Shown: piece after piece, positions 3,355-57,183 of the stretch
Layout: each line of letters starts with the position of its first letter
Numbering within the stretch: the first letter of the stretch is position 1
The notes under the pieces: model-generated
What the model was told of the DNA's origin: nothing
Databases searched by the model: none
What the model saw: only the letters and a program-made list of their open reading frames with translations
Assembly: GCA_049322615.1 (NCBI GenBank)
Contig: JBMORX010000009.1
Coordinates: forward strand, 57,120 to 121,119
Source: Patescibacteria group bacterium
GTDB lineage: Bacteria; Patescibacteriota; Microgenomatia; CAYGWK01
DNA: 64,000 nt
Direction of reading: 5' to 3'
Position numbers and translations under genes: made by a program

Positions 3355-4635
3355 TTATTGCTGATTAGCGCTGATTTTCAAGAATTTTCTTTTTCCAACT
3401 TTTATAATCATTCCGTCTTTAATAGTAATTGGTAATTGGTAATTGGTAATTGGATTGCCATCTATTTCCACTGCTTTCTGTCCGACCAGCCTTTTTGCTT
3501 CGGATCTACTTGTCGCCATGCCTGTACTAACCAGAAGCCCTATTACGTTAACAGAGGATTCTGACATATTGACTACTGGGATGTTGTCAGGTATTTCTTT
3601 TCGTTGAATTTGTCTCTCAAATTTTTTTTCTGCCTGGTGGACTTCGTCTGCGGAATGATAGAGAACCGTGATGTTTCTTGCTAGAATTTTTTTAAGGTCC
3701 ATTGGATGAATATCTCCTGTTTTCCATCGACTAATGAGAGACTTAACTTGTTCAAGAGGCAAGTCTGTTGCTAATTCAAAGAAAATTGGCATCAATTCAT
3801 CAGGGATAGACATTATTTTAAAAAACATGTTTGCTGAGGAATCTAATAAGTCAACAGTATTACCAAGGCTCTTACTCATTTTTTCTTGACCATCAATTCC
3901 TGGAAGATATTTTGTTAAAATGACTTCTTCTGGACGCTGACCAAACGATTTTTGTAAGTCTCGAGTCAGGACGAAATTGAAACGTTGATCAATTCCCCCC
4001 AGCTCCACGTCTGCCTTTACAGCCACTGAGTCATACGCTTGTAAAACAGGATAGAGCATTTCATGGAAAGCCAATACTTTCCCATCCTTCACTCTTTTAG
4101 AAAAAGTTTCATGAGACATTAATTGTCCATAAGTAACTTTTGACATTAATCTAATCAATTTTTCAAGATCAAATTGGCCATACCATTCGGATTGAAGACG
4201 AATCTCGGTTTTGTCGCGATCTAAAATCTTATAAACCTGCTGGAAATATTTTTCTGCATTTCGTTGGACCTCTTCTGCGCTTAATACTTTTCTTGTTGCG
4301 CTCATACCAGAAGGGTCACCTATTCTAGCGGTGTAATCACCGATTATAAAAACGGCTACATGTCCTAATTCCTGAAATTGTTTTAATTTTCTGATTGGAA
4401 CTGCATGTCCAATATGGGCAGACCGCATAGTGGGATCAATGCCGTATTTAACTCTAAGAGGTTTTTTTTCTAGAAGACGGTCTTTTAACCCTTGTTCTGT
4501 AATTATGTCTGCAACGCCTCGTTTTAGAATTTCATTTTCTAAATCTCGCTTTTCATCTTCTTGAAAACTATTCAAACCTAATGGCTGAGTCTCTTTATTA
4601 TTGTGGGTCATTTTTTTCTTTTTGTGTTTTAACAT
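3355..4635 (-). CDS. tyrS: tyrosine--tRNA ligase with C-terminal S4-like domain
   Basis: class I HIGH (AHIGHAVP) and KMSKS (KMSKSLGN) motifs; 426 aa. Confidence 0.88.
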   Translation of the reverse strand: MLKHKKKKMTHNNKETQPLGLNSFQEDEKRDLENEILKRGVADIITEQGLKDRLLEKKPLRVKYGIDPTMRSAHIGHAVPIRKLKQFQELGHVAVFIIGDYTARIGDPSGMSATRKVLSAEEVQRNAEKYFQQVYKILDRDKTEIRLQSEWYGQFDLEKLIRLMSKVTYGQLMSHETFSKRVKDGKVLAFHEMLYPVLQAYDSVAVKADVELGGIDQRFNFVLTRDLQKSFGQRPEEVILTKYLPGIDGQEKMSKSLGNTVDLLDSSANMFFKIMSIPDELMPIFFELATDLPLEQVKSLISRWKTGDIHPMDLKKILARNITVLYHSADEVHQAEKKFERQIQRKEIPDNIPVVNMSESSVNVIGLLVSTGMATSRSEAKRLVGQKAVEIDGNPITNYQLPITIKDGMIIKVGKRKFLKISANQQ

Positions 4636-5843: not shown

Positions 5844-6563
5844 TTACCTTAAGGCATTTATAAAATTAAAAAAAATCTGTTTTCTTGGTCCGTGAGAAAC
5901 GGAGAAACCTTGTCTTATTGCCAAAAAAATATCTACCCCTCGTTTTTCTAACTCTTCCCTTCTACTCTCTAAAATTTTTCTGGCTTTCTCTGGTGAAATT
6001 TCTGGATGGAACTGGATTCCCCACACAGGGTTAGTGGAGTAACGGAACGCTTGTACCTCGCAAAGCGGAGATTGTGCTAGATTTATTGCATTTTTTGGAA
6101 GAAGTGTAACCTGATCTTTATGGTATTGAAACGACCAAAATTCATCAGGCATGTTAGAGAAAAGTGGGTCAGCTTTACCATTGCTATTAAGAACAATTTT
6201 TGACCATCCTATCTCCGAATTTTCGGCTGACAACTTAACCTCACCACCTAGGATATGTGCTAAAAGTTGATGCCCTAGGCAGATCCCTAATACTGCTTTG
6301 TCTTTGGCTATCATATCGGCTATAAAATCAGCTTCTTTTTTAAGATAGTCATATTGTGGTAAGTGCATTTCGTACACACCCATCGACCCACCACTTATAA
6401 TTACCGCCTCAAAGTCAGAATTCGAAGGCACTTCTTCGCCAAGATGTACTCTTGAAATTTCCCCTCTTCCTCCGGCTGGTTTAATTAGCTCTTTTATGCC
6501 TTCTGCGCGTCTTTCAGCATTCTCAATAATTAGAGTTCGTATTTGCTCTTTCATAAGTTCCAA
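5844..6563 (-). CDS. class I glutamine amidotransferase-like protein (peptidase C26 / gamma-glutamyl hydrolase-like)
   Basis: GICLGHQLL catalytic Cys motif; stand-alone 239-aa GATase1. Confidence 0.75.
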   Translation of the reverse strand: MELMKEQIRTLIIENAERRAEGIKELIKPAGGRGEISRVHLGEEVPSNSDFEAVIISGGSMGVYEMHLPQYDYLKKEADFIADMIAKDKAVLGICLGHQLLAHILGGEVKLSAENSEIGWSKIVLNSNGKADPLFSNMPDEFWSFQYHKDQVTLLPKNAINLAQSPLCEVQAFRYSTNPVWGIQFHPEISPEKARKILESRREELEKRGVDIFLAIRQGFSVSHGPRKQIFFNFINALR

Positions 6564-12805: not shown

Positions 12806-13219
12806 TTGAGGGAAAATGGTACAATTTTTCGGCAAATATTTTATTTTAATAGAATGAGTATAAGCAAAGAACGCCTCCCAAGGTTGCCAAAAGGATTGCG
12901 TGTCTACATCCGGCAGGTTAAAGCCGGGGCACGAAAAACAGGGGAAGACTGGGGAGACAAGGCTCTTCCAGAACTTTGTCTTTCGGATCTTTTAACACTT
13001 GTCCGACGAAGTGGTCAGGGAACTCAACGTTTCAAAGAGGCGATTGCAGCTGTTTTCACTGATACCGATAATTTGGATTCATTGATGAGGCTCCTTGAGG
13101 TTTCTCAAGAATTTGGTTTTCCGACCAGCTCAAACAATCATGCTCTTTTTGAAGCCACCCAGCGGGCGGTGATAAGGCAAATAGGTGAGCTTAGGAAGAA
13201 AAAGCCTCAAGAAGCCTAA
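12806..13219 (+). CDS. hypothetical protein
   Basis: ORF track; start may be the internal Met at 12854. Confidence 0.35.
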   Translation: MRENGTIFRQIFYFNRMSISKERLPRLPKGLRVYIRQVKAGARKTGEDWGDKALPELCLSDLLTLVRRSGQGTQRFKEAIAAVFTDTDNLDSLMRLLEVSQEFGFPTSSNNHALFEATQRAVIRQIGELRKKKPQEA

Positions 13220-15330
13220 AGAGTTTTAAGAATAGCGCCAAATTTGCTTTTTACTGCGGAAATTATTTTTTCTCTTATTTTCTCTACCTCTTTATCGGTC
13301 AAAGTTTTCTTAGGGTGCTGATAGATAATTCTGAAAGTTCGAGTGTCTCCATGAATATCGATTAATTCAACACTTTGAATAATTGAACTAGACACTTTAA
13401 TTAATTGAAGTAGATCTCCAATTAAAGTCTTTGGTGGAACAACAAAAGCCAAATCCTCAACAATAGCAGGATATTTGGGAATGGGGGTAAAGGTTTTAGT
13501 TTTTTTGGCAAGTAAAATTAAAGCTTCAAAATCAAGGTCAAGAACAACCGTTTTGTTTAAAATTTCGAAATTTGCCAAAACCCGAGGGTTGACTTCACCA
13601 ATTGTTCCTAAGACATTATTGGTCGTTTCCATAACCGCTGCTTTTCCCTGGCTAAAATAGGGCTCTCTTCCTACCCAAGGCTTAAAATGGATATCCTCAA
13701 TTCCCAAATGCTCGAAAATAATCTCCGAGATGCCCTTTAAGTAGGAAAAGTCTTCCCCAGTTACCAAACAAGTAAGTCTGGTTTTTTCCAGAGGGAGATT
13801 TCCTTTTTGGGGAAGATAAACATTAGCCATCTCAAAAATTTTCACTTTGGGAAAATTGGCTTGGTTTTGGGCGACTGTTTTAAGCAGACTCTCAAGAAGG
13901 GAAATCCTTAAGTATTCAAGATCGCTGGTGAGCGGGTTTTTGAGTTTAAGATGGTCTTCGGTCTTTAGTCCAGTTTTTTGAATTGAGTCTTTTCCGATGA
14001 AGGAATAATTGTAAACTTCGGAGAAGCCTTTGCCAACAAGCACCTCTTTAATTTTATTCTCATATTCAAAGAACATCCCTATTTTTCCTTTTTGAGGTTG
14101 AGGTTGGGGTAAAAGACCGAACAAAGGATGAAGCGGAGGAATATTGCCGGGAAGTCTAAAGTAGCCATAGATTCTGGCGATTTCCTCAATTAAGTCTTCT
14201 TCGTGAGATATGTCTTGGGCGCGAAAGCTTGGAACGGAGAAAGTGAGAAGTGCCGTGCGTCGCCAGAGGCTACTCGCCGTTGCGTAGCCACGCTTTGGCG
14301 GAGCGCGGTGCCGGCGGCGCGAGAAATGAGAAGTGAGAAGTGAGAAGCCAAGAGATTCAAGGATACTGATGATTTTATTCTTTGGAATTTCGATGCCGAT
14401 GATTTTATTGACTAAATCAAGATCCAGTTTGATTTTTTTGCTTTTTTGGGGATTAGGATAAATATCTATTAATTTACTGGCGACCCTTCCTTGGCAGAGG
14501 TCTTCCATTAGCTTTACTCCTTGAGAAATGACAGGAATAATTCCTTCTAAATCAATCCCTCTTTCAAATCTCACCGCTGCCTCGGTCCGGTGAGCCAGAG
14601 CCATCGACGTCTGTCTGATTCTGACGGGATTATAAGCCTGAACGAAGAAAAGGACTCTTTTAGTGTTTTCGTCTATTTGGCTATTTTCCGCACCCATGAT
14701 ACCGCAAAGATCAATTAATCTTTCTTTTCCATCCTCGATAACGATATCTCCACCTGGAAGGGTCCGGGTAGCCCCATCGAGAGTGGTAATTTTTTCTCCT
14801 GGTCGTGACAGCCTCATAATCATTTTTGCCCCAAGAATTTTGTCGTAATCAAAAGTATGGATTGGTTGTCCGGTTTCGATCATTAAATAATTGGAAATAT
14901 CAACCACATTGGAAAGTGGTCTGATGCCAACTTTTTCTAATCTCTCAGCCATCCATTTTGGAGAAGGGGCAACCTTTACCTGGTCGATAACGACAGCAGA
15001 AAACCGAGGACAGAGAGTCTCATCTTTGATTTCTACGGAAAGATTAAATTTTGGATTTTTCATCTCTAGAGGAAGAATCTTGGGTGATGCAAATTCCGCT
15101 TTTATACCGTATCCTGAAAGAGCCGCCGCCGCTTCCCGGGCGATGCCGCGAACCGATAAACAATCATAGCGATTGACAGTTATCTCGATTTCCAAAATCT
15201 GGTCATCTTTTTCCGAATGGATTTTTTCCACTGATTGGCTACAAAGAGAAAGAACTTCAGCCACCTTCTCTGGGCTTGCTTCAGTTTTAAGAAAGTCTTT
15301 CAACCAAGAAAAAGGAATAAGAATATTCAT
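13216..15330 (-). CDS. pheT: phenylalanine--tRNA ligase beta subunit carrying an in-frame 37-aa insertion encoded by a GC-rich repeat
   Basis: B3/B4, B5 and FDX-ACB-like blocks; lies downstream of pheS; insertion at 14237-14348. Confidence 0.88.
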   Translation of the reverse strand: MNILIPFSWLKDFLKTEASPEKVAEVLSLCSQSVEKIHSEKDDQILEIEITVNRYDCLSVRGIAREAAAALSGYGIKAEFASPKILPLEMKNPKFNLSVEIKDETLCPRFSAVVIDQVKVAPSPKWMAERLEKVGIRPLSNVVDISNYLMIETGQPIHTFDYDKILGAKMIMRLSRPGEKITTLDGATRTLPGGDIVIEDGKERLIDLCGIMGAENSQIDENTKRVLFFVQAYNPVRIRQTSMALAHRTEAAVRFERGIDLEGIIPVISQGVKLMEDLCQGRVASKLIDIYPNPQKSKKIKLDLDLVNKIIGIEIPKNKIISILESLGFSLLTSHFSRRRHRAPPKRGYATASSLWRRTALLTFSVPSFRAQDISHEEDLIEEIARIYGYFRLPGNIPPLHPLFGLLPQPQPQKGKIGMFFEYENKIKEVLVGKGFSEVYNYSFIGKDSIQKTGLKTEDHLKLKNPLTSDLEYLRISLLESLLKTVAQNQANFPKVKIFEMANVYLPQKGNLPLEKTRLTCLVTGEDFSYLKGISEIIFEHLGIEDIHFKPWVGREPYFSQGKAAVMETTNNVLGTIGEVNPRVLANFEILNKTVVLDLDFEALILLAKKTKTFTPIPKYPAIVEDLAFVVPPKTLIGDLLQLIKVSSSIIQSVELIDIHGDTRTFRIIYQHPKKTLTDKEVEKIREKIISAVKSKFGAILKTL
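14237..14348. repeat. GC-rich 74-nt hairpin core flanked by GAGAAGT/GGGAAGT heptamers, in frame in pheT
   Basis: core gtgccgtgcgtcgccagaggctactcgccgttgcgtagccacgctttggcggagcgcggtgccggcggcgcgag matches 56210-56312 exactly by eye; nested palindrome GGCTAC..GTAGCC. Confidence 0.85.
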
Positions 15331-16550: not shown

Positions 16551-16575
16551 GGCAATTTACTCGGCGAATCCAGGA

Positions 16576-20158: not shown

Positions 20159-20335
20159 GGTTTGATTATAGCACCAATAACAATTAAAAAACCAACCTTT
20201 CGGCTGGTTGTCGATTAGTTTTAACCCCACTAACAAACCAGCCGTTTTAGACGCTGGTAGTTGTAGTTACAGTTAAAACCGCAATCATTATTTTGAATTA
20301 TACTAATAAAAATTTTATTGTCAAGTGGATGGCAT
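20159..20335 (-). promoter_or_regulatory. thrS promoter plus leader-peptide transcription attenuator
   Basis: minus strand: TTGACA, 16 nt, TATAAT. Hairpin ACCAGC/GCTGGT versus a perfect 8-bp alternative GGCTGGTT/AACCAGCC versus a terminator CAACC..GGTTG followed by TTTTTT. Confidence 0.7.
20247..20288 (-). CDS. Thr-rich leader peptide MIAVLTVTTTTSV
   Basis: 5 Thr codons among 13; the ORF ends inside the first attenuator hairpin. Confidence 0.6.
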   Translation of the reverse strand: MIAVLTVTTTTSV

Positions 20336-20379
20336 AGGACTCGAACCTATGACCTTTTCGATGTCAACGAAGCGCTCTT
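20326..20379 (-). pseudogene. tRNA 3' fragment (anticodon arm GAC, T arm, acceptor 3' strand plus CCA); 3' half of a tRNA split by an insertion
   Basis: T arm ATAGG-TTCGAGT-CCTAT, anticodon loop TTGACAT, no matching 5' acceptor strand adjacent. Confidence 0.6.
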
Positions 20380-20508
20380 CACCCGACTAACTTTTGCAGG
20401 TTGATTTTAGAAAGCCCAATTTAAACAAATAAAAATTTGTTGTTTTAGAGCTTCTTCTTAATTAACTCATTGGCAAAAGTTTGACGGGTAAACCAACTGA
20501 GCTCTTAG

Positions 20509-20582
20509 TGGGCGCATCAGGACTTGAACCTGAGACCTTTACTATGTCAAAGTAACGCTCTAGCCACCTGAGCTATGCGCCC
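20509..20582 (-). tRNA. tRNA-Val(GAC), no CCA encoded
   Basis: manual cloverleaf: acceptor GGGCGCA/TGCGCCC, anticodon loop TTGACAT, T loop TTCAAGT. Confidence 0.85.
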
Positions 20583-20826
20583 AGTAATTCTTTAAGACCT
20601 TTTTTAAATGAGTTCTCCCCCAGCCTGTTTTAAAATATTTTTCTCTGCTAGTTGCGTCTTGTTGATTTAAATACGCTTCGTAATAAATTAATCTAAATGG
20701 TTTTCTATATTTTGTTATTGCAACCTCACCAGAATTATGTTCTTCAAATCTTCGTTTTAGATTATCCGTATAACCTACGTACAATTTTCTATCTTTCAAA
20801 CTTTCTAGTACATAGACATGATACAT
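20560..20826 (-). CDS. GIY-YIG domain protein (small URI-type nuclease); its 3' end overlaps tRNA-Val
   Basis: YVYVLES...KLYVGYTDNLKRRFEEHN... GIY-YIG block; 88 aa. Confidence 0.8.
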   Translation of the reverse strand: MYHVYVLESLKDRKLYVGYTDNLKRRFEEHNSGEVAITKYRKPFRLIYYEAYLNQQDATSREKYFKTGWGRTHLKKVLKNYWAHSSGG

Positions 20827-20945
20827 AGACGCTCTTTACCCGTCAAACTTTCGCCCAATAATTAAGAAAGCCTTTATTAATAAATAAGTCTCATTTCTTA
20901 AGTTAGTATTTTAAAACAAACCGCGAAAGTTAGTCGGGTAAACCA

Positions 20946-20968
20946 ACTGAGCTATCCGCCCGTAGGCT
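20946..20968 (-). pseudogene. tRNA 5' fragment (acceptor plus D-arm 5' part) broken in the D-loop by the element TIR
   Basis: GGGCGGA-TA-GCTC-AGTTGGTT followed directly by TACCCGACTAACTTT. Confidence 0.55.
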
Positions 20969-21011
20969 TATTTTACAAGAAAGAAAAGGTGATTTCAATT
21001 GGAGAAAGCAT

Positions 21012-21584
21012 TTACCCCGCCTGGGTGGCCATGTAGCGTTCTTGGGAAAGCATGAATTTGGTGCCTGATTTTTGAACTTGAGCCCAATAGAAGGGTCTCT
21101 TTTTGGCCCGAGCATTCCAAGCCGCCAGCCAAACCGAAGCATCTTCAATTTTGCGAGTTAAAGATTTAATAAATGAAATTAATTTTTCAAAGAAAGTCTC
21201 ATGATAGACCCCAGGTTCAACTGGGGTTTGAACGGCGGCAATTTTAACTTCCTTGGCTAAATTTTGCGTTGCCGAGGCTAATTTTTTGACTTCTTCTTGA
21301 AGAGCGGCAACTTTGGTTTTGCTCTCTTGGTCTTTGGCAGAAAAAACGATTCTTTCTTGTTTCCTGACAATCTCTGCCTGGCAAAACCGCCGCTCAAATA
21401 TTTCTTGAAGCTCTGGTTTTTGGTTTTCCGGAAGGACTGTTTCAGATATTTTTCTTGGCCGAAGCCCAGTTTGGTCCTGAATGTCAGAACCAATGCCTCC
21501 TCCTAAATCACGCAAGGCTTCAAGGAGATCTCTTGGCAGGGTTTTTGATTTTGGCTTCTGTCCTTTTGGAGCCATTGGCAACAA
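21012..21584 (-). CDS. hypothetical protein
   Basis: ORF track; charged, helix-rich sequence. Confidence 0.45.
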   Translation of the reverse strand: MLPMAPKGQKPKSKTLPRDLLEALRDLGGGIGSDIQDQTGLRPRKISETVLPENQKPELQEIFERRFCQAEIVRKQERIVFSAKDQESKTKVAALQEEVKKLASATQNLAKEVKIAAVQTPVEPGVYHETFFEKLISFIKSLTRKIEDASVWLAAWNARAKKRPFYWAQVQKSGTKFMLSQERYMATQAG

Positions 21585-21604
21585 AATATCAGAGTCTTGC
21601 TAAA

Positions 21605-21790
21605 AAGTCAAGCCCCGCACCAAGCTTACCTCGCGCCGCGAATTGCGACCCGTCAGACGGGTCTGGCACGTTCGACGTGCCGTTTGCGCTCGCGAGGGGG
21701 CGCTGGTGCGGGGCGCAGACCCCGCATACACGCCCTTGCGACGCGAACACGAAGTATTCGGGAGCAAGTAAGTGTTGTGCGGGGTCAAAC
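21605..21790. repeat. GC-rich structured intergenic element (family E) with terminal inverted repeats and several internal hairpins
   Basis: GC-rich island in an AT-rich genome; ends CCCCGCAC..GTGCGGGG; hairpins GACCCGTCAGACGGGTC, GCACGTTCGACGTGC and TGCGGGGCGCAGACCCCGCA; shares CCCGCAGACCCCG and CGGGGTCAA with 37125-37245. Confidence 0.6.
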
Positions 21791-21793
21791 ACC

Positions 21794-22666
21794 TTAAAGT
21801 TTCGTTAGGAATTCCAGAGATCTTCTTCTTAGCAAAATTCCTTTAAGATAAGCACGCTGAAGGGGTGTATTTAAGTTTTCTTTTAAATTTTTGTCTCCGG
21901 TTGAGGAAATTAAATCGTCTATTTCTTTATCAGAAACCTGAATCTTTTCTTCTTCAGCCACCTTATCAAGAGAGAATTGAAGCTTAAGGTCATTTACAAT
22001 TCTTTCTCGGTATTCTGCTCGTAACTGCTCGGCACTTTTATTAATTGAATTAAGATATTGGTCAATTGTTAAGCCTAAAGTGTTAGTTTGATTAATTAAA
22101 TTAGAAAGGGCACGCTTAACTTCGTCCTCCATTAACATCTCTGGTAAATCTACTTTGACAATTTCTAATAATTTTTGGATTACCTTTTGGGTCTTTTCGT
22201 CTTCCGTGCCTTCCTGAGAATTCCGTGTTTCCGTGGTTGCGGGCTTTTTATGCGGGACCCATATCTTCGTTGGGGCAAGCGCTTTTCTTATCTCTTCTTT
22301 ATACCTTCCCAAGTGCACCTCCGGTGTTTCGCAGGTTGTGGCTCTAATTTCCCAATCTTCACCTTCTTTTGCTTTTAAAAGTTCAACTTTAGGGGTAAGG
22401 ATTGGTTTTAAATTATGCTCTTTGACTGCCTCTATATACACTTTGGGAACCAGACGCTGGAGCACCTTCTCGTAAACTTTTGATTTATCAATTTTTTCCT
22501 CGACTAATTTCTTTGGGGCTTTTCCTTTTCTAAATCCAGGAATTTCTGTTTCTTTAACAATTTCCTCCAAAGCCTGCTCATAAGACTTTTTTACCTCATC
22601 GGTGGCAATCGTAATCGTTAATTGAATTTCACCGGTTCCGGTTTTTGCCAGGATTGATTTTGCCAT
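21794..22666 (-). CDS. tig: trigger factor (short form)
   Basis: N-terminal ribosome-binding block IPGFRKGKAP; 290 aa. Confidence 0.8.
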   Translation of the reverse strand: MAKSILAKTGTGEIQLTITIATDEVKKSYEQALEEIVKETEIPGFRKGKAPKKLVEEKIDKSKVYEKVLQRLVPKVYIEAVKEHNLKPILTPKVELLKAKEGEDWEIRATTCETPEVHLGRYKEEIRKALAPTKIWVPHKKPATTETRNSQEGTEDEKTQKVIQKLLEIVKVDLPEMLMEDEVKRALSNLINQTNTLGLTIDQYLNSINKSAEQLRAEYRERIVNDLKLQFSLDKVAEEEKIQVSDKEIDDLISSTGDKNLKENLNTPLQRAYLKGILLRRRSLEFLTKL

Positions 22667-33471: not shown

Positions 33472-33497
33472 GCGTCCATAGCTCAATTGGATAGAGC
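33472..33497 (+). pseudogene. tRNA 5' fragment (acceptor plus complete D arm)
   Basis: GCGTCCA-TA-GCTC-AATTGGAT-AGAGC, then 4 nt, then the next tRNA. Confidence 0.5.
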
Positions 33498-33501
33498 CGA
33501 A

Positions 33502-33573
33502 GCCTCTGTAGCTTAACGGATAAAGCCCTGGTCTTCGGAACCAGTAATGGGGGTTCGATTCCCTCCAGAGGCA
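33502..33573 (+). tRNA. tRNA-Arg(TCG), no CCA
   Basis: acceptor GCCTCTG/CAGAGGC, anticodon loop CTTCGGA, T loop TTCGATT. Confidence 0.85.
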
Positions 33574-33605
33574 CTAGAAAATTTCTAAAAGAAATTTCAA
33601 GCGCA

Positions 33606-33878
33606 ATGCACCAAAAATATTATTTATATATTTTAAGAAGTAAGCTTGATAAAAATTTATATATTGGTGTCACTACAAACTTATATAAAAGAGTTCAAGA
33701 ACATAATTTTGGTAATCAGCAATCAACTAAAAATAGAGGAAATTTTGAATTGATTTATTATGAAGTATTTTTCAATAAATTAGATGTTTATTTGCGAGAA
33801 AAATATTTTAAAACTGGTTGGGGAAGAAAACATTTAAGACATGCCTTATCTAATACGCTAAGTACACTAAGAACATAG
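33606..33878 (+). CDS. GIY-YIG domain protein (small URI-type nuclease)
   Basis: YYLYILRS...NLYIGVTTNLYKRVQEHN; flanked by the near-palindromes CTAGAAAATTTCT (33578) and AAAAATTTCTAG (33912). Confidence 0.8.
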   Translation: MHQKYYLYILRSKLDKNLYIGVTTNLYKRVQEHNFGNQQSTKNRGNFELIYYEVFFNKLDVYLREKYFKTGWGRKHLRHALSNTLSTLRT

Positions 33879-44991: not shown

Positions 44992-45204
44992 GTGCGGGTG
45001 TAGTTCAGTTAGTAGAACGTCTCCCTTCCAGCCCGAAAAATCGCCTTCGGTGATTAACGGGCTAGGCACGTTAATTTGTGCGGGAGTAGCTCAGTTGGGA
45101 GAGCGTCTCCCTTCCAAGGAGAAGGTCGCGAGTTCAAATCTCGTCTCCCGCTCACAAATTTTACGTGCCAAGGAGAAGGTCGTGGGAGCAAGGCCCATCA
45201 CCCG
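44992..45204 (+). pseudogene. decayed tRNA-Gly(TCC) split in its anticodon loop (5' half 44992-45028, 3' half 45166-45204) with an intact tRNA-Gly(TCC) embedded between the halves
   Basis: outer acceptor GCGGGTG/CACCCGC perfect and anticodon stems intact; outer T loop degenerate (AGCAAGG); CCA duplicated at both junctions; inner gene bounded by the inverted repeats GCACGTTAATTTGTG / CACAAATTTTACGTGC. Confidence 0.65.
45078..45150 (+). tRNA. tRNA-Gly(TCC)
   Basis: acceptor GCGGGAG/CTCCCGC, anticodon loop CTTCCAA, T loop TTCAAAT. Confidence 0.85.
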
Positions 45205-45232
45205 CTCAAGTTTACTCCGAACGAATGTGAGG

Positions 45233-45333
45233 AGCCCCTGTAGCTCAATGGATAAGCTGGCTTTTCAAGCCATCTTAATCCGCAAGGCGGATTAAGCGAG
45301 CTTGACCATTTCGCACAGTGGCTCGCGATGCTC
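45233..45333 (+). pseudogene. tRNA 5' fragment duplicating the first 25 nt of tRNA-Arg(TCT), followed by the hairpins TTAATCCGCAAGGCGGATTAA and GCGAGC..GCTCGC
   Basis: GCCCCTGTAGCTCAATGGATAAGC versus the intact GCCCCTGTAGCTCAATGGATAGAGC; anticodon region non-canonical. Confidence 0.55.
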
Positions 45334-45406
45334 GCCCCTGTAGCTCAATGGATAGAGCGGGTCGGTTCTAACGACTAGGTTGGGGGTTCGACTCCCTCCA
45401 GGGGCA
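45334..45406 (+). tRNA. tRNA-Arg(TCT)
   Basis: acceptor GCCCCTG/CAGGGGC, anticodon loop GTTCTAA, T loop TTCGACT. Confidence 0.8.
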
Positions 45407-45422
45407 CCCTTCGATAAACCAT

Positions 45423-54906: not shown

Positions 54907-57003
54907 TTAACTAGCCGTAATTTCCTTAATCTTGTCCCTAATTTTGGCTGCGAGTTCAAAGTTTAGATCGCGAGCTGCTTCTTTCATTTCTTTGGTTAAG
55001 CGCTTGACTAGCCTTAGGCGATCTTCAGGTGTCAGTTGTCCAGAATCAAGATGTTTAAGTTCTGACAAAGCAGATTGATAACTTCTGATTCCGAAAATAA
55101 ATGGGTCTATTCTTTCTTCGCGGACTACCAGTTTTTCCCTAATTGGCTTTTGAATACTCCGAGGAGTAATTTTGTGTTTTTTATTGTATTCAAGTTGAAT
55201 GTTTCTTCTCCGGGAAACTTCAGCGATTGCCCGCTTCATTGAACCAGTCAGATTATCAGCATACATAATTACCTGTCCATTTATATGCCTAGCTGCCCGA
55301 CCCATGACCTGAATCAAAGAGGTTTCTGAGCGCAAAAACCCCTCTTTATCCGCATCTAAAATTGCCACCAAAGAAACTTCGGGCAAATCAAGTCCTTCTC
55401 GTAAAAGATTAATCCCCACCACCACATCATATTTTCCCAAACGCAAATCATCTAAAATATCAGACCGGTCAAGAGTCTGGATCTCTGAATGAAGGTAATG
55501 AACTTTTACCCCTTTTTCCTGAAGATATAAAGCCAAATCTTCAGCCATTCTTTTAGTTAAAGTCGTTACCAGAACCCTTTCTCTCGCTTTGACCCTTTTG
55601 TCTATTTCTAAAATCAAGTTATCAATCTGTCCCTCAGTTTTCTTAATGGAAATCTCTGGGTCGGGAATTCCAGTTGGGCGAATAAGTTGTTCCACGGGCT
55701 TGCCAGTTTTTTCAAGTTCCCAGTCTGCTGGGGTGGCTGAAGTATAAATTGTTTGGGGAATCCTCCTTAAAAATTCTGCAAATTTCAGAGGTCGGTTATC
55801 TAAAGCCGCCGGCAGTCTAAACCCAAATTTGACCAAGGTTTCCTTTCTTGAGCGGTCGCCATTATACATCCCTTCAATTTGGGGAATGCTCATGTGCGAC
55901 TCGTCAATAAATAAAAGCCAATTATTCTGGTAAGGCTCTTTAAAATAATCAAGTAAAGTGTAGGGTGGCTCGCCAGGTTTTCGACCATCAAAATAGCGAG
56001 AATAATTTTCAACCCCATTGACATATCCAGTTTCTTCAATCATCTCCAAATCATAATTCACTCTTTGTTCTAAGCGGTGAGCCTCAAGTATCTTTCCTTG
56101 GGAACGGAGTTCTCTAAGTCTTTCTTCCAGATCTTTCCTTATTTCCACAAAAACATCTGAAAGACTGGCTGGATCAGTCATATAGTGTTTGGCAGGATAG
56201 ATTAAGACAGAAGTGGGAAGGGCGAAGTGCCGTGCGTCGCCAGAGGCTACTCGCCGTTGCGTAGCCACGCTTTGGCGGAGCGCGGTGCCGGCGGCGCGAG
56301 AAGTGGGAAGAATTTTGCCATTTAGGGGATCTATTTTGGCGATTTTCGTAATCCTCTCTCCCTCCATTTCAATTCTGACAGCCACATCTTCGTAGGCTGG
56401 GAAAATGTCAATCGTGTCTCCTCTGACTCGGAAAGTGCCTCGGTGAAAACCATAGTCTGCCCGATCGTATTGAAGACGGGTAAGCCTTCTTAATATTTCC
56501 TGGCGATCAATTTTTTGTCCAATTTCTACTTCTAAAACAAAATGTCCATATTCTCTGGGCGAACCAAGGTTATAAATACAAGAAACTGAAGCAACAATGA
56601 TGGTATCTGGTCTGGTTAAAATATTGGTCGTAGACTCCAGTCTTAATTTGTCAATTAATTCATTTATTTCTGTTTCTTTTTCAATATAAGTGTCGGTTTG
56701 GGGAATATAAGCCTCGGGTTGATAATAATCATAATAAGAAACAAAGAAACAAACCGCGTTCTCGGGAAAGAAATCGCGAAATTCTTGATAAAGCTGGGCG
56801 GCTAGGGTTTTGTTATGAGAAATAACCAAAGTCGGTCGTTGCAGTTTGGCAATGACATTAGCCATGGTAAAAGTTTTTCCCGAACCAGTTACCCCAAGTA
56901 AAACTTGATGTTTTTCCCCAGCCCGAATTCCGGTCACCAATTTCTCAATCGCCTCCGGCTGGTCTCCGGTGGGTTTAAAAGTTGAATGGAGTTTAAATTC
57001 CAT
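54907..57003 (-). CDS. uvrB: excinuclease ABC subunit B carrying an in-frame ~34-aa insertion encoded by the GC-rich 74-nt core
   Basis: [10 protein letters not shown] Walker A, helicase motifs, C-terminal UvrB/UvrC interaction helix; insertion at 56210-56312. Confidence 0.9.
56210..56312. repeat. GC-rich 74-nt hairpin core flanked by GGGAAGT heptamers, in frame in uvrB
   Basis: core identical to 14250-14323; the frame of insertion differs from the pheT copy. Confidence 0.85.
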
Positions 57004-57090: not shown

Positions 57091-57183
57091 TCACCCCCAG
57101 CTTTGCCAAGGCTTCGGCGAGGTCTGCGTCCCGATAAAAATCGGGACTTGACATTTGGGTTTTCTTCGTATTATGATTAAACC

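Follow-up and report, generated by a model that had tools for sequence, protein, structure and literature searches.

A GC-rich insertion between tig and a DUF5660 gene in a Patescibacteria genome is an inverted doublet of a widespread hairpin unit

Among described systems, the DNA reported here appears to work most like the repetitive extragenic palindromic (REP) sequences with their BIME and REPIN forms (RAYT/TnpA-REP), and like MITEs, the miniature transposable elements with inverted repeats, such as the Correia elements. We analysed a stretch of 64,000 nucleotides, hereafter the window, from a Patescibacteria group bacterium (assembly GCA_049322615.1, contig JBMORX010000009.1, positions 57,120 to 121,119 of the forward strand). 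In it, positions 21605-21790, between the trigger factor gene tig and a gene for a DUF5660 protein, had been described from the sequence alone as either a structured small RNA or a MITE-like element (the original prediction). Our results show that this region is an insertion, consisting of an inverted doublet (hairpins A and B) of a widespread and structurally constrained hairpin unit, that it abuts a -35 box, and that the displaced gene end has been duplicated.

Like REP/BIME/REPIN elements, the units described here are GC-rich imperfect palindromes that lie in presumably transcribed extragenic DNA and are non-autonomous, they are found singly as well as in inverted doublets (doublets being present in the window element and in locus L052), and the folded single strand appears to be their conserved feature. 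They differ in that the apical and internal loops of hairpin A are conserved across lineages whose genes are about 40% different, whereas REPs are species-specific, in that the flanks of hairpin A carry duplications of 5-50 nt, and in that we saw no RAYT (Y1 transposase) family among the 25 listed of the 112 families matched by 124 open reading frames (ORFs) neighbouring hairpin A. Besides, hairpin A is 66 nt long, with a foot that begins with CCCC and no terminal GTAG or CGTC, and so falls outside the definition of a REP, in the wording of PMC3733652, as a palindrome of 20-40 nt that has at one of its ends a conserved tetranucleotide, GTAG or CGTC.

The Correia MITEs of Neisseria are likewise short and non-coding, with direct repeats at their flanks, and they are situated next to genes and co-transcribed with them. 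They affect promoters and terminators, and are substrates of RNase III. In hairpin A, however, it is the interior that is conserved and the terminal stem that varies, contrary to what a typical MITE shows, and the targets are TTGAC sequences (-35 boxes) or gene ends, with long duplications of variable size instead of a fixed short target-site duplication.

GC-rich hairpins that invade compact, AT-rich genomes, including their essential genes, are also known as Rickettsia palindromic elements and as the GC clusters and double-hairpin elements of fungal mitochondria, the latter with a double-hairpin architecture as found here. These elements show no sequence similarity to hairpin A, and they are tolerated by in-frame translation or by their location in variable regions, whereas here the interrupted gene end is duplicated. 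The outcome, a relic gene end followed by the insert and a complete gene, with the same conserved sites struck repeatedly, is in turn that of homing-endonuclease cassettes and tRNA-targeting integrative elements; in Allomyces atp6, for instance, a C-terminal duplication with a GIY-YIG ORF provides a replacement gene end. Unlike these cassettes, hairpin A has no ORF, no linked endonuclease or integrase gene was found, and the end of tig looks like a local copy.

The insertion at the tig-DUF5660 junction

The features of the locus, in the direction of tig transcription, are as follows.

21794-22666, minus strand: trigger factor gene tig, the 5' neighbour of the element
21794-21820, minus strand: present tig C-terminus SLEFLTKL-stop (by translation), second copy of the duplicated 24-nt gene end
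21784-21788, minus strand: tig-side TTGAC direct repeat (by sequence), whose GAC lengthens the stem of hairpin A
21718-21786, minus strand: canonical hairpin A (covariance model R1, 87.1 bits, E = 5e-26, over 21715-21788)
21714-21719, no strand: linker CGCAGA (TCTGCG on the minus strand), the conserved 3' tail of hairpin A, within CGGGGTCTGCG in both the 21605 and the 37125 elements, and the consensus tail of class (i) loci (see below)
21613-21713, plus strand: hairpin B (from the fold), a degenerate inverted unit of the hairpin A type with the foot CCCCGCACCAAGCTTAC ... GGGGCGCTGGTGCGGGG
21607-21611, minus strand: promoter-side TTGAC direct repeat, which is the -35 box (by sequence)
21589-21612, minus strand: relic of the original tig C-terminal codons, LDFLARL-stop (by translation), downstream of the element and overlapping the promoter spacer
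21583-21611, minus strand: native sigma-70-type promoter of the DUF5660 gene (TTGACT, 17 nt, TATTTT, TG-extended, 7 nt, ATG; from a promoter scan), directly abutting the element
21012-21584, minus strand: DUF5660 gene, the 3' neighbour of the element, with its ATG at 21584

In 12 Microgenomates loci tig is followed by the DUF5660 gene within 10-60 nt and without any element, and on the contigs of the two closest tig homologues (79% and 77% identity) the spacer is 13 nt and likewise lacks the element. The site, filled in the window, is empty in at least 15 relatives from Microgenomates/Woesebacteria-type groups of the Candidate Phyla Radiation (CPR; loci L002-L013 and L024-L027), and model R1 did not find hairpin A in any relative's tig locus searched. 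As the relatives have this junction without the element, 21605-21790 is an insertion; conservation in relatives, a check proposed in the original prediction, is therefore lacking at the syntenic site.

In the relatives, the last tig codons (…L-D-F-L-x-K-L-stop, CTTGAC…TGA) double as the -35 box and spacer of the DUF5660 promoter, with the -10 box coming after the tig stop codon. On the DUF5660 side of the element, the native segment 21583-21612 is intact: the old tig frame still reads GLDFLARL-stop, and the sequence from the -10 box to the DUF5660 start codon is identical to that of the element-free relative L027 at 15 of 16 positions. The relic, which is contiguous with the native -10 box and the DUF5660 start, matches at 19 of 24 positions the 3' end of the functional tig in L024 and in L027. 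For the present tig end the figures are 17/24 with the relatives and 15/24 with the relic, the last counted by hand. Each copy has kept a different function, since the one on the tig side retains the codons and has lost TTGAC, and the one on the DUF5660 side retains the promoter and has lost the K-L codons. The 36-nt segment into which the inverted pair is inserted has two roles in the relatives, encoding the last codons of tig and providing the DUF5660 promoter with its -35 box and spacer. From their sequences, we infer that the two copies of the gene end arose by local duplication, followed by a division of labour; the fact that both are about equally distant from the relatives fits a local duplication better than the arrival of a foreign end.

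The only other assembly with the exact tig gene, Logan contig SRR32167786_71065 (L001), extends only 35 nt beyond the stop codon, to the edge of the GC-rich element, and hairpins of this kind probably break short-read assemblies. The DUF5660 promoter of the relatives overlaps the tig stop codon, and numerous genes of these genomes lack a Shine-Dalgarno sequence and have their -10 box 5-7 nt before the ATG (L029-L013 relatives, window 21583-21590, L049, L065 and L119), which suggests that leaderless mRNAs are frequent.

From TTGAC to TTGAC there are 177 nt, or 59 codons, the frame leading into the relic LDFLARL-stop is open across the entire element, and pheT and uvrB of this genome contain GC-rich inserts that are in frame; the element might accordingly be taken for an in-frame coding insertion comparable to the Rickettsia palindromic elements, translated now or once as a 59-residue insert in tig. 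We rejected this reading, which we regard as barely conceivable, for tig already terminates ahead of the element, at a TAA, the open frame is shifted by one base, and all six frames are open because the sequence is GC-rich. Furthermore, the lengths of the family members show no bias towards multiples of three (10, 8 and 5 members with remainders 0, 1 and 2), and the hairpin is read in differing frames at differing loci, indicating that hairpin A is not coding.

The inserted region has a GC content of 64.5%, as compared to 42.8% and 36.6% in its 500-nt flanks and 39.6% in the whole window, in agreement with the value of about 65% in AT-rich surroundings given before, and the hairpin strings quoted for it were all found at their places. 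Its folding energy is -110.8 kcal/mol on the plus strand (z = -8.1) and -106 kcal/mol on the minus strand (z = -7.6), with none of 200 shuffled sequences as stable in either case, and z is -6.4 when it is folded as DNA. The minimum-energy structure is not the single one, closed by CCCCGCAC...GTGCGGGG, that had been proposed, but two neighbouring long hairpins, 21613-21713 and 21718-21786, joined by the linker CGCAGA. That closure, with a central TGCGGGG-CGCAGA-CCCCGCA hairpin, is an alternative pairing only, made possible by the identical foot of both hairpins. Terminal inverted repeats are present at the ends of the composite (CCCCGCAC... and ...GTGCGGGG), and every unit has in addition its own paired foot.

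A GC-rich island in an AT-rich genome, with an extreme fold z-score on both strands and a length of around 185 nt, which is a size typical of 6S RNA, could also be a stand-alone gene for a structured small RNA, such as a divergent 6S-like or housekeeping RNA missed by Rfam in CPR bacteria. At gathering thresholds, however, tRNAs alone pass in a Rfam search of the whole window, and even at E <= 10 the regions 21500-21900 and 37000-37400 retrieved only chance matches to miRNA, snoRNA and Streptomyces sRNA families, of 11-20 bits, so that the scan proposed in the original prediction assigns the element to no known family. By-eye readings as SRP, 6S, tRNA-like, T-arm or anticodon-arm structures were dropped, because the conserved positions do not fit and Rfam was silent. 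The element is without a promoter or terminator of its own: nothing terminator-like was found in 21400-21950, where the hairpins are followed by CTTGAC without a U-tract. Moreover, its halves are separate repeat units that occur independently elsewhere, in multiple copies at unrelated loci. A discrete small RNA gene, largely refuted already by its absence from the syntenic site in the relatives, is in our opinion very improbable.

In hairpin B, the apex is replaced by two mini-palindromes, 21647-21663 and 21666-21680, of the type SCGTYNRACGS (e.g. CCCGTCAGACGGG), a motif that occurs five times in the window (at 21650, 37203, 43624, 43642 and 62056) versus 0.23 expected. This motif is found inside both elements flagged in the original prediction and between tRNA-Leu genes, and the motif ACCCGTCAAAC also borders a tRNA-Val insert described below. 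The closest relative of the whole A+B composite is on another contig (L052/L061), upstream of a CIRCE-controlled hrcA-grpE promoter, and has the identical type of hairpin A, TCTGCG, and a hairpin B with the common foot. Both ends of the window hairpin B are homologous to the hairpin B of L052/L061, and R1 scores the latter, in L052, with 35 bits on the opposite strand, which indicates that hairpin B is a degenerate inverted hairpin A. The presence of the same doublet at two unrelated loci argues that it moves as a unit. The idea that hairpin B is a duplicated target, weakly suggested by L029, L054 and L035, was abandoned, being contradicted by the A+B composite common to the window and L052.

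The window contains further relatives of the element.

43459-43523, plus strand: second canonical hairpin A (R1, 78.6 bits over 43454-43528), in inverted repeat
37130-37243, minus strand: framework relative, with CTTGAC, hairpin A' (37178-37238), TCTGCG, hairpin B' (37136-37172) and CTTGACA (by sequence and folds)
57118-57180, plus strand: possible third relative, promoter-side half only, with CGAGGTCTGCG, hairpin TCCCGATAAAAATCGGGA, CTTGACA, 17 nt, TTATGA, 7 nt and ATG (pattern match with one mismatch)

The first of these, missed in the original prediction, is closer than the one proposed there as a related copy, at 37125-37245. The latter shares the layout (GTCAAG, hairpin, GCAGA, hairpin, GTCAAG) and can be called related in that respect, but the interiors of its hairpins are different, and R1 scores it with only 10.9 bits, the foot alone matching. 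Of the strings said to be common to both elements, CGGGGTCAA is indeed shared, whereas the quoted 13-mer is really the 11-mer CGCAGACCCCG (CGGGGTCTGCG on the minus strand). The TTGACA on the promoter side of the 37125 element, at its edge, provides the -35 box for a promoter that matches 11/12 (37134 to 37106, minus strand; TTGACA, 17 nt, TATTAT), and about 15 nt after this promoter there is a good intrinsic terminator (37090 to 37064); judging from the sequence, both together would yield a tiny antisense transcript at the 3' end of a 204-aa ORF.

The hairpin A family and the sites it occupies

Hairpin A consists of 66 nt, namely CCCC, 8 nt, CUUAC, UUGCUCCCGA, a stem with a UAC loop, UCGCGUCGCAA, GAGCG, 8 nt and GGGG, plus a short 3' tail that is CAAGC, CAGGC or TCTGCG. 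In the window, model R1 detects two canonical copies, of which 21721-21774 and 43469-43522 form an inverted repeat of 81% identity with compensatory changes. Using as a query the exact pattern TTGCTCCCGA-N8-24-TCGCGTCGCAA, the core common to these two copies, we retrieved at least 120 loci from metagenome contigs, nearly all of them AT-rich contigs from groundwater and sediment, and R1 identified 105 copies in 517 kb of the contigs selected with this pattern. The core pattern had zero matches in IMG/VR, and Blast comparison of the element with phage and plasmid collections gave no match; a looser framework pattern, TTGACCCCG-N40-62-CGGGGTCTGCG, produced in IMG/VR a single chance match without a hairpin and was discarded. 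The family is not described in the literature that we searched by sequence and by topic, and the words 'hairpin' or 'duplicat' never occur in a recent survey of tRNA introns in Patescibacteria. Apparently, then, hairpin A defines a large and previously undescribed family in bacteria of the CPR.

The apical 45 nt of hairpin A are nearly invariant, although the near-invariance of a 21-nt core is partly an artefact of the exact-match search, and diverged copies exist, such as the second hairpin of L035, L084 and L096. In the model-based alignment double changes occur in 18 of 23 pairs, with 89% of the cells paired, and there are 276 double-change cells versus 86 in shuffled alignments and 14-51 with the partners slid; a MAFFT alignment agrees with this covariation. 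Well-aligned columns contain about 45 G-U pairs against 8 A-C pairs, an excess that favours the strand reading CUUAC…GAGCG.

With a nearly invariant apex, conserved loops, covarying stems and wobble pairs favouring one strand, hairpin A could be a functional cis-acting RNA module that was spread by insertion, for example a processing site of the RNase III type, a 5' or 3' stabiliser or a factor-binding site. The window copy would then be a structure in the 3' untranslated region of tig, insulating it from the DUF5660 promoter, which is compatible with a mobile origin. Several copies are in fact situated right after a promoter, at the 5' end of the transcript (hrcA in L035 and L084; L032/L075), one is just upstream of a 23S rRNA gene (L118), both canonical window copies are co-directional with their genes, and hairpins at orthologous sites are conserved far beyond the surrounding genes and linkers. 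In the family as a whole, a promoter directly upstream of the hairpin is present at 20 of 90 loci versus 10 of 90 in the mirror control, only a modest enrichment. On the other hand, strict co-orientation with genes was not found, as only about 63% of the copies match the nearest gene. In addition, the absence from the tig locus of all the relatives implies that the module is dispensable there, a U-tract for intrinsic termination is missing, and the search artefact and the diverged copies mentioned above lessen the force of the invariance. A role as an RNA module is for these reasons a possibility to be taken seriously, although we consider it clearly the less probable one.

The loci fall into two classes. 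Class (i) comprises 23 unique loci, including that of the window, with the order (C)TTGAC, hairpin A, TCTGCG, a second hairpin of variable sequence, and CTTGAC(A/T). In 17 of the 23 a TAnnnT sequence lies 16-18 nt downstream of the 3'-side TTGAC, as opposed to 11.7% of background TTGAC sites (p = 7e-12); this enrichment indicates that copies of class (i) abut the -35 boxes of real promoters, including that of hrcA in four lineages. The promoters at the -35 repeats of the 21605 and 37125 elements were also called by the promoter scan.

Class (ii) has only hairpin A. Scores for flank duplication were above those of all shuffles in about 24 of 96 unique loci, where a segment of 16-52 nt ends exactly at the 5' foot of the hairpin and is repeated 4-55 nt away on the 3' side. 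The functional copy always lies 3', and the relic 5', of the hairpin. In one pattern, a relic N-terminus is followed by the hairpin, a linker, often with a Shine-Dalgarno sequence, and the complete gene, as in ychF (interrupted after GLPNVG), a glycosyltransferase (after EYG) and MreB (after IDLG), and also in GalU, topoisomerase I and transketolase. For genes on the opposite strand the order is complete gene, hairpin and relic C-terminus, as in trxB from two lineages, one of them with two successive rounds, and in three other genes. The duplicated segment often begins 0-4 nt from the start codon, at the stop codon or at the +1 position of a tRNA. A target-site duplication of fixed length seems improbable for the family as a whole: TTGAC/CTTGAC is present on both sides in 23 loci, and the duplications of other copies vary between 16 and 52 nt.

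The second canonical hairpin A of the window, about 30 nt downstream of a promoter (43401-43429, from the promoter scan), exemplifies the order of relic tRNA 5' part, hairpin and complete tRNA (43443-43623).

43443-43458, plus strand: tRNA-Leu relic that corresponds to the first 16 nt of the gene, immediately precedes the second hairpin A on its 5' side and is identical at 13 of 16 positions to the start of the tRNA-Leu(cag) gene at 43539
43539-43623, plus strand: complete tRNA-Leu(cag), after the second hairpin A with its tail and the linker CAAGCTGGTAAACGC

Synteny was lost for the 108-aa ORF upstream of this tRNA array; instead, the relative L151 provided an empty tRNA-Leu(cag) site, with neither relic nor hairpin. 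In L151, at 4376-4571 (minus strand), the relic GGTGGCGGAAT and an insert of some 100 nt, structured and with a CCCGCAC…GTTTGCGGGA hairpin, stand before tRNA-Leu(gag). This insert is at the same D-loop position as the tRNA-Leu relic of the window, so that the site has been struck repeatedly by different hairpins.

These arrangements could also be produced without any dedicated transposition, if the hairpins were stable DNA ends marking the boundary of foreign or ectopic DNA that had entered through homology-facilitated illegitimate recombination, with homology at one end and microhomology at the other, or else through homing that followed a double-strand break. Such a process would explain why the complete gene end is always 3' of the hairpin and the relic 5', which we observe at more than 20 loci whatever the direction of the gene. 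It also agrees with the similarity between copies often stopping at the boundary of an ORF or tRNA, with the same conserved sites being struck in several lineages (the P-loop of ychF, EYGG of the glycosyltransferase, GCMAALD of trxB and the D-loop of tRNA-Leu), and with the existence, in the window and in L002, of GIY-YIG endonuclease cassettes that have an equal layout of relic, insert and complete tRNA. Nevertheless, the tig copies, identical to the relatives at 17/24 and 19/24 positions, are better explained by local duplication, a tRNA-Arg relic of the window (see below) is 100% identical to the resident gene, and the same A+B composite exists at two unrelated loci. The GIY-YIG genes, moreover, do not adjoin copies of hairpin A; in a phmmer search with a window GIY-YIG protein, ORFs were found on several contigs, none of them next to hairpin A. 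Overall, we deem this explanation rather unlikely.

Other repeats and tRNA-linked inserts of the window

The window contains other inserts associated to tRNA genes. At 20300-20990 (minus strand), the D-loop of a tRNA-Val-like gene is interrupted by some 560 nt of inserted DNA with nested long-range pairings (20378-20407/20913-20942 and 20457-20492/20835-20870), which carries a GIY-YIG ORF (20560-20826) and a complete tRNA-Val(GAC) (20508-20582). As in this case, L002 contains at 5880-6284 a relic 5' half with a GC hairpin, a GIY-YIG ORF and a complete tRNA-Val. A second GIY-YIG ORF of the window (33494-33875, plus strand), homologous to 20560-20826, overlaps tRNA-Arg 33502-33574, and small GIY-YIG ORFs recur on related contigs.

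Two tRNA-Gly genes are nested within remains of others. Within 44058-44218, the complete tRNA-Gly(gcc) at 44096-44170 is flanked by the inverted repeat GCCCCGCACCAAT / GAATATGGTGCGGGG, with a foot as in hairpin B, and this unit lies between the decayed tRNA-Gly halves 44058-44082 and 44186-44218. Likewise, within 44992-45207, the complete tRNA-Gly(tcc) at 45080-45153 is located between GGCACGTTAATTT / AAATTTTACGTGCC, the stem of a mini-hairpin inside the 21605 element, and between the tRNA-Gly relic halves 44992-45029 and 45170-45207, with a further hairpin at 45030-45063. Finally, at 45234-45408 a 21-nt relic (45234-45254) reproduces the beginning of tRNA-Arg(tct), from exactly +1, with 100% identity, and is followed by 79 nt of hairpins, including TTAATCCGCAAGGCGGATTAA, which resembles a hairpin of the 37125 element, and then by the complete gene. 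Going by its sequence, this would seem to be a duplication of very recent date, whose boundary coincides precisely with that of the gene.

The GC-rich inserts 14241-14333, in pheT (13216-15330), and 56218-56310, in uvrB (54907-57003), both of them essential genes, are 96% identical to each other, are in frame, although read in different frames, have direct repeats of the GAGAAGTG/GGGAAGTG type, and constitute a family distinct from hairpin A. The MITE-like alternative of the original prediction had the 21605 element in the same broad family as this pheT/uvrB core, which our results do not support; we found no BLAST similarity between them, and the pheT/uvrB element differs in its flanking repeats, of the GAGAAGTG type, and in its in-frame position inside ORFs. 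Two other repeats are dispersed in the window, a 51-nt double palindrome, TCCAGGATAGTCCTGGA … CCAGGATAGTCCTGGA, with five copies at 16566, 17274, 24044, 26241 and 57043, some of them within ORFs, and a 38-nt repeat, TTGCACCCCTGGGGTGAAAC…CACACCTGCGGA, at 42809, 51507, 54146 and 54860.

Mobility, mechanism and meaning

We consider it likely that 21605-21790 is a small, non-coding and non-autonomous mobile insertion of the REPIN/MITE type, made of two inverted hairpin A units, and not an RNA gene. Of the two alternatives in the original prediction, it is therefore the MITE-like element that agrees with our results, given the empty site in all the relatives examined, the TTGAC direct repeats, the dispersed multi-copy family and the closest relative at an unrelated locus.

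Several observations count against a mobile element. At tig, the TTGAC repeats and the 24-nt duplication of the gene end are out of register, which requires either two events, a 29-nt tandem duplication and then insertion at TTGAC, or a single duplication of 34-36 nt whose last 10 nt have diverged. Duplications of 16-52 nt that often start exactly at a start codon, a stop codon or the +1 of a tRNA, in one case with 100% identical copies, are not predicted by ordinary staggered-cut transposition. A Pfam scan of the 124 ORFs neighbouring hairpin A retrieved, among the families listed, housekeeping families and no transposase or recurrent mobility gene, and we know of no parent insertion sequence with ends matching those of hairpin A, nor did we see any near the copies. 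The density of hairpin A is modest, around one per 5-30 kb of the sampled contigs, in a sampling biased by the search pattern. Lastly, between orthologous sites in ychF and the glycosyltransferase the identity of the hairpins is 92-95%, as compared to about 56-60% for the genes, and the linkers are not alignable. This conservation suits a function at the host or RNA level at least as well as selfish DNA, and implies either selection on the hairpin, whether for its mobility or for some host function, or repeated hits at the same sites.

If the insertion is indeed mobile, the hairpin unit would be moved in trans by an enzyme recognising the folded single strand, with no candidate gene next to the copies, and only those insertions that regenerate the interrupted end might survive. 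Within the tig mRNA, the two stems would most likely be a passive 3'-end structure, secondary to the nature of the element as selfish DNA. The duplicated segments run from the insertion point to the exact end of an RNA or ORF, that is, to the +1 of tRNAs, to the start codons of apparently leaderless genes and to stop codons, and duplication ends of such precision suggest an RNA-templated or R-loop-guided step instead of a blind staggered cut. Candidates for this step would be reverse transcription with template switching, or insertion of single-stranded DNA into the displaced strand. It is a bold and rather doubtful proposal that these are elements of a new kind, in which integration and the regeneration of the interrupted end, be it of a gene, tRNA or promoter, are mechanistically linked. 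Yet duplications that are variable in length and bounded by genes leave room for an RNA-templated or R-loop step, or for the hairpin marking the end of an incoming fragment.

CPR bacteria, or Patescibacteria, have tiny, gene-dense genomes that are thought to hold little repetitive DNA. Against this background, a conserved 66-nt hairpin occurs at more than 100 environmental loci, in the ends of essential genes (ychF, mreB, trxB, tig and tRNAs) and on -35 boxes. Should it be mobile, it would represent a previously unrecorded way to tolerate insertions in minimal genomes, and would also give rise to annotation errors, among them relic starts, halves of pseudo-tRNAs and broken assemblies; should it instead be a host RNA signal, it would be among the most conserved non-coding motifs of the CPR. 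Covariance model R1 makes a census across CPR genomes and metatranscriptomes directly possible. If the end-regenerating mechanism were true, it would mean that selfish elements are able to colonise essential, highly conserved sites of minimal genomes without killing their host.

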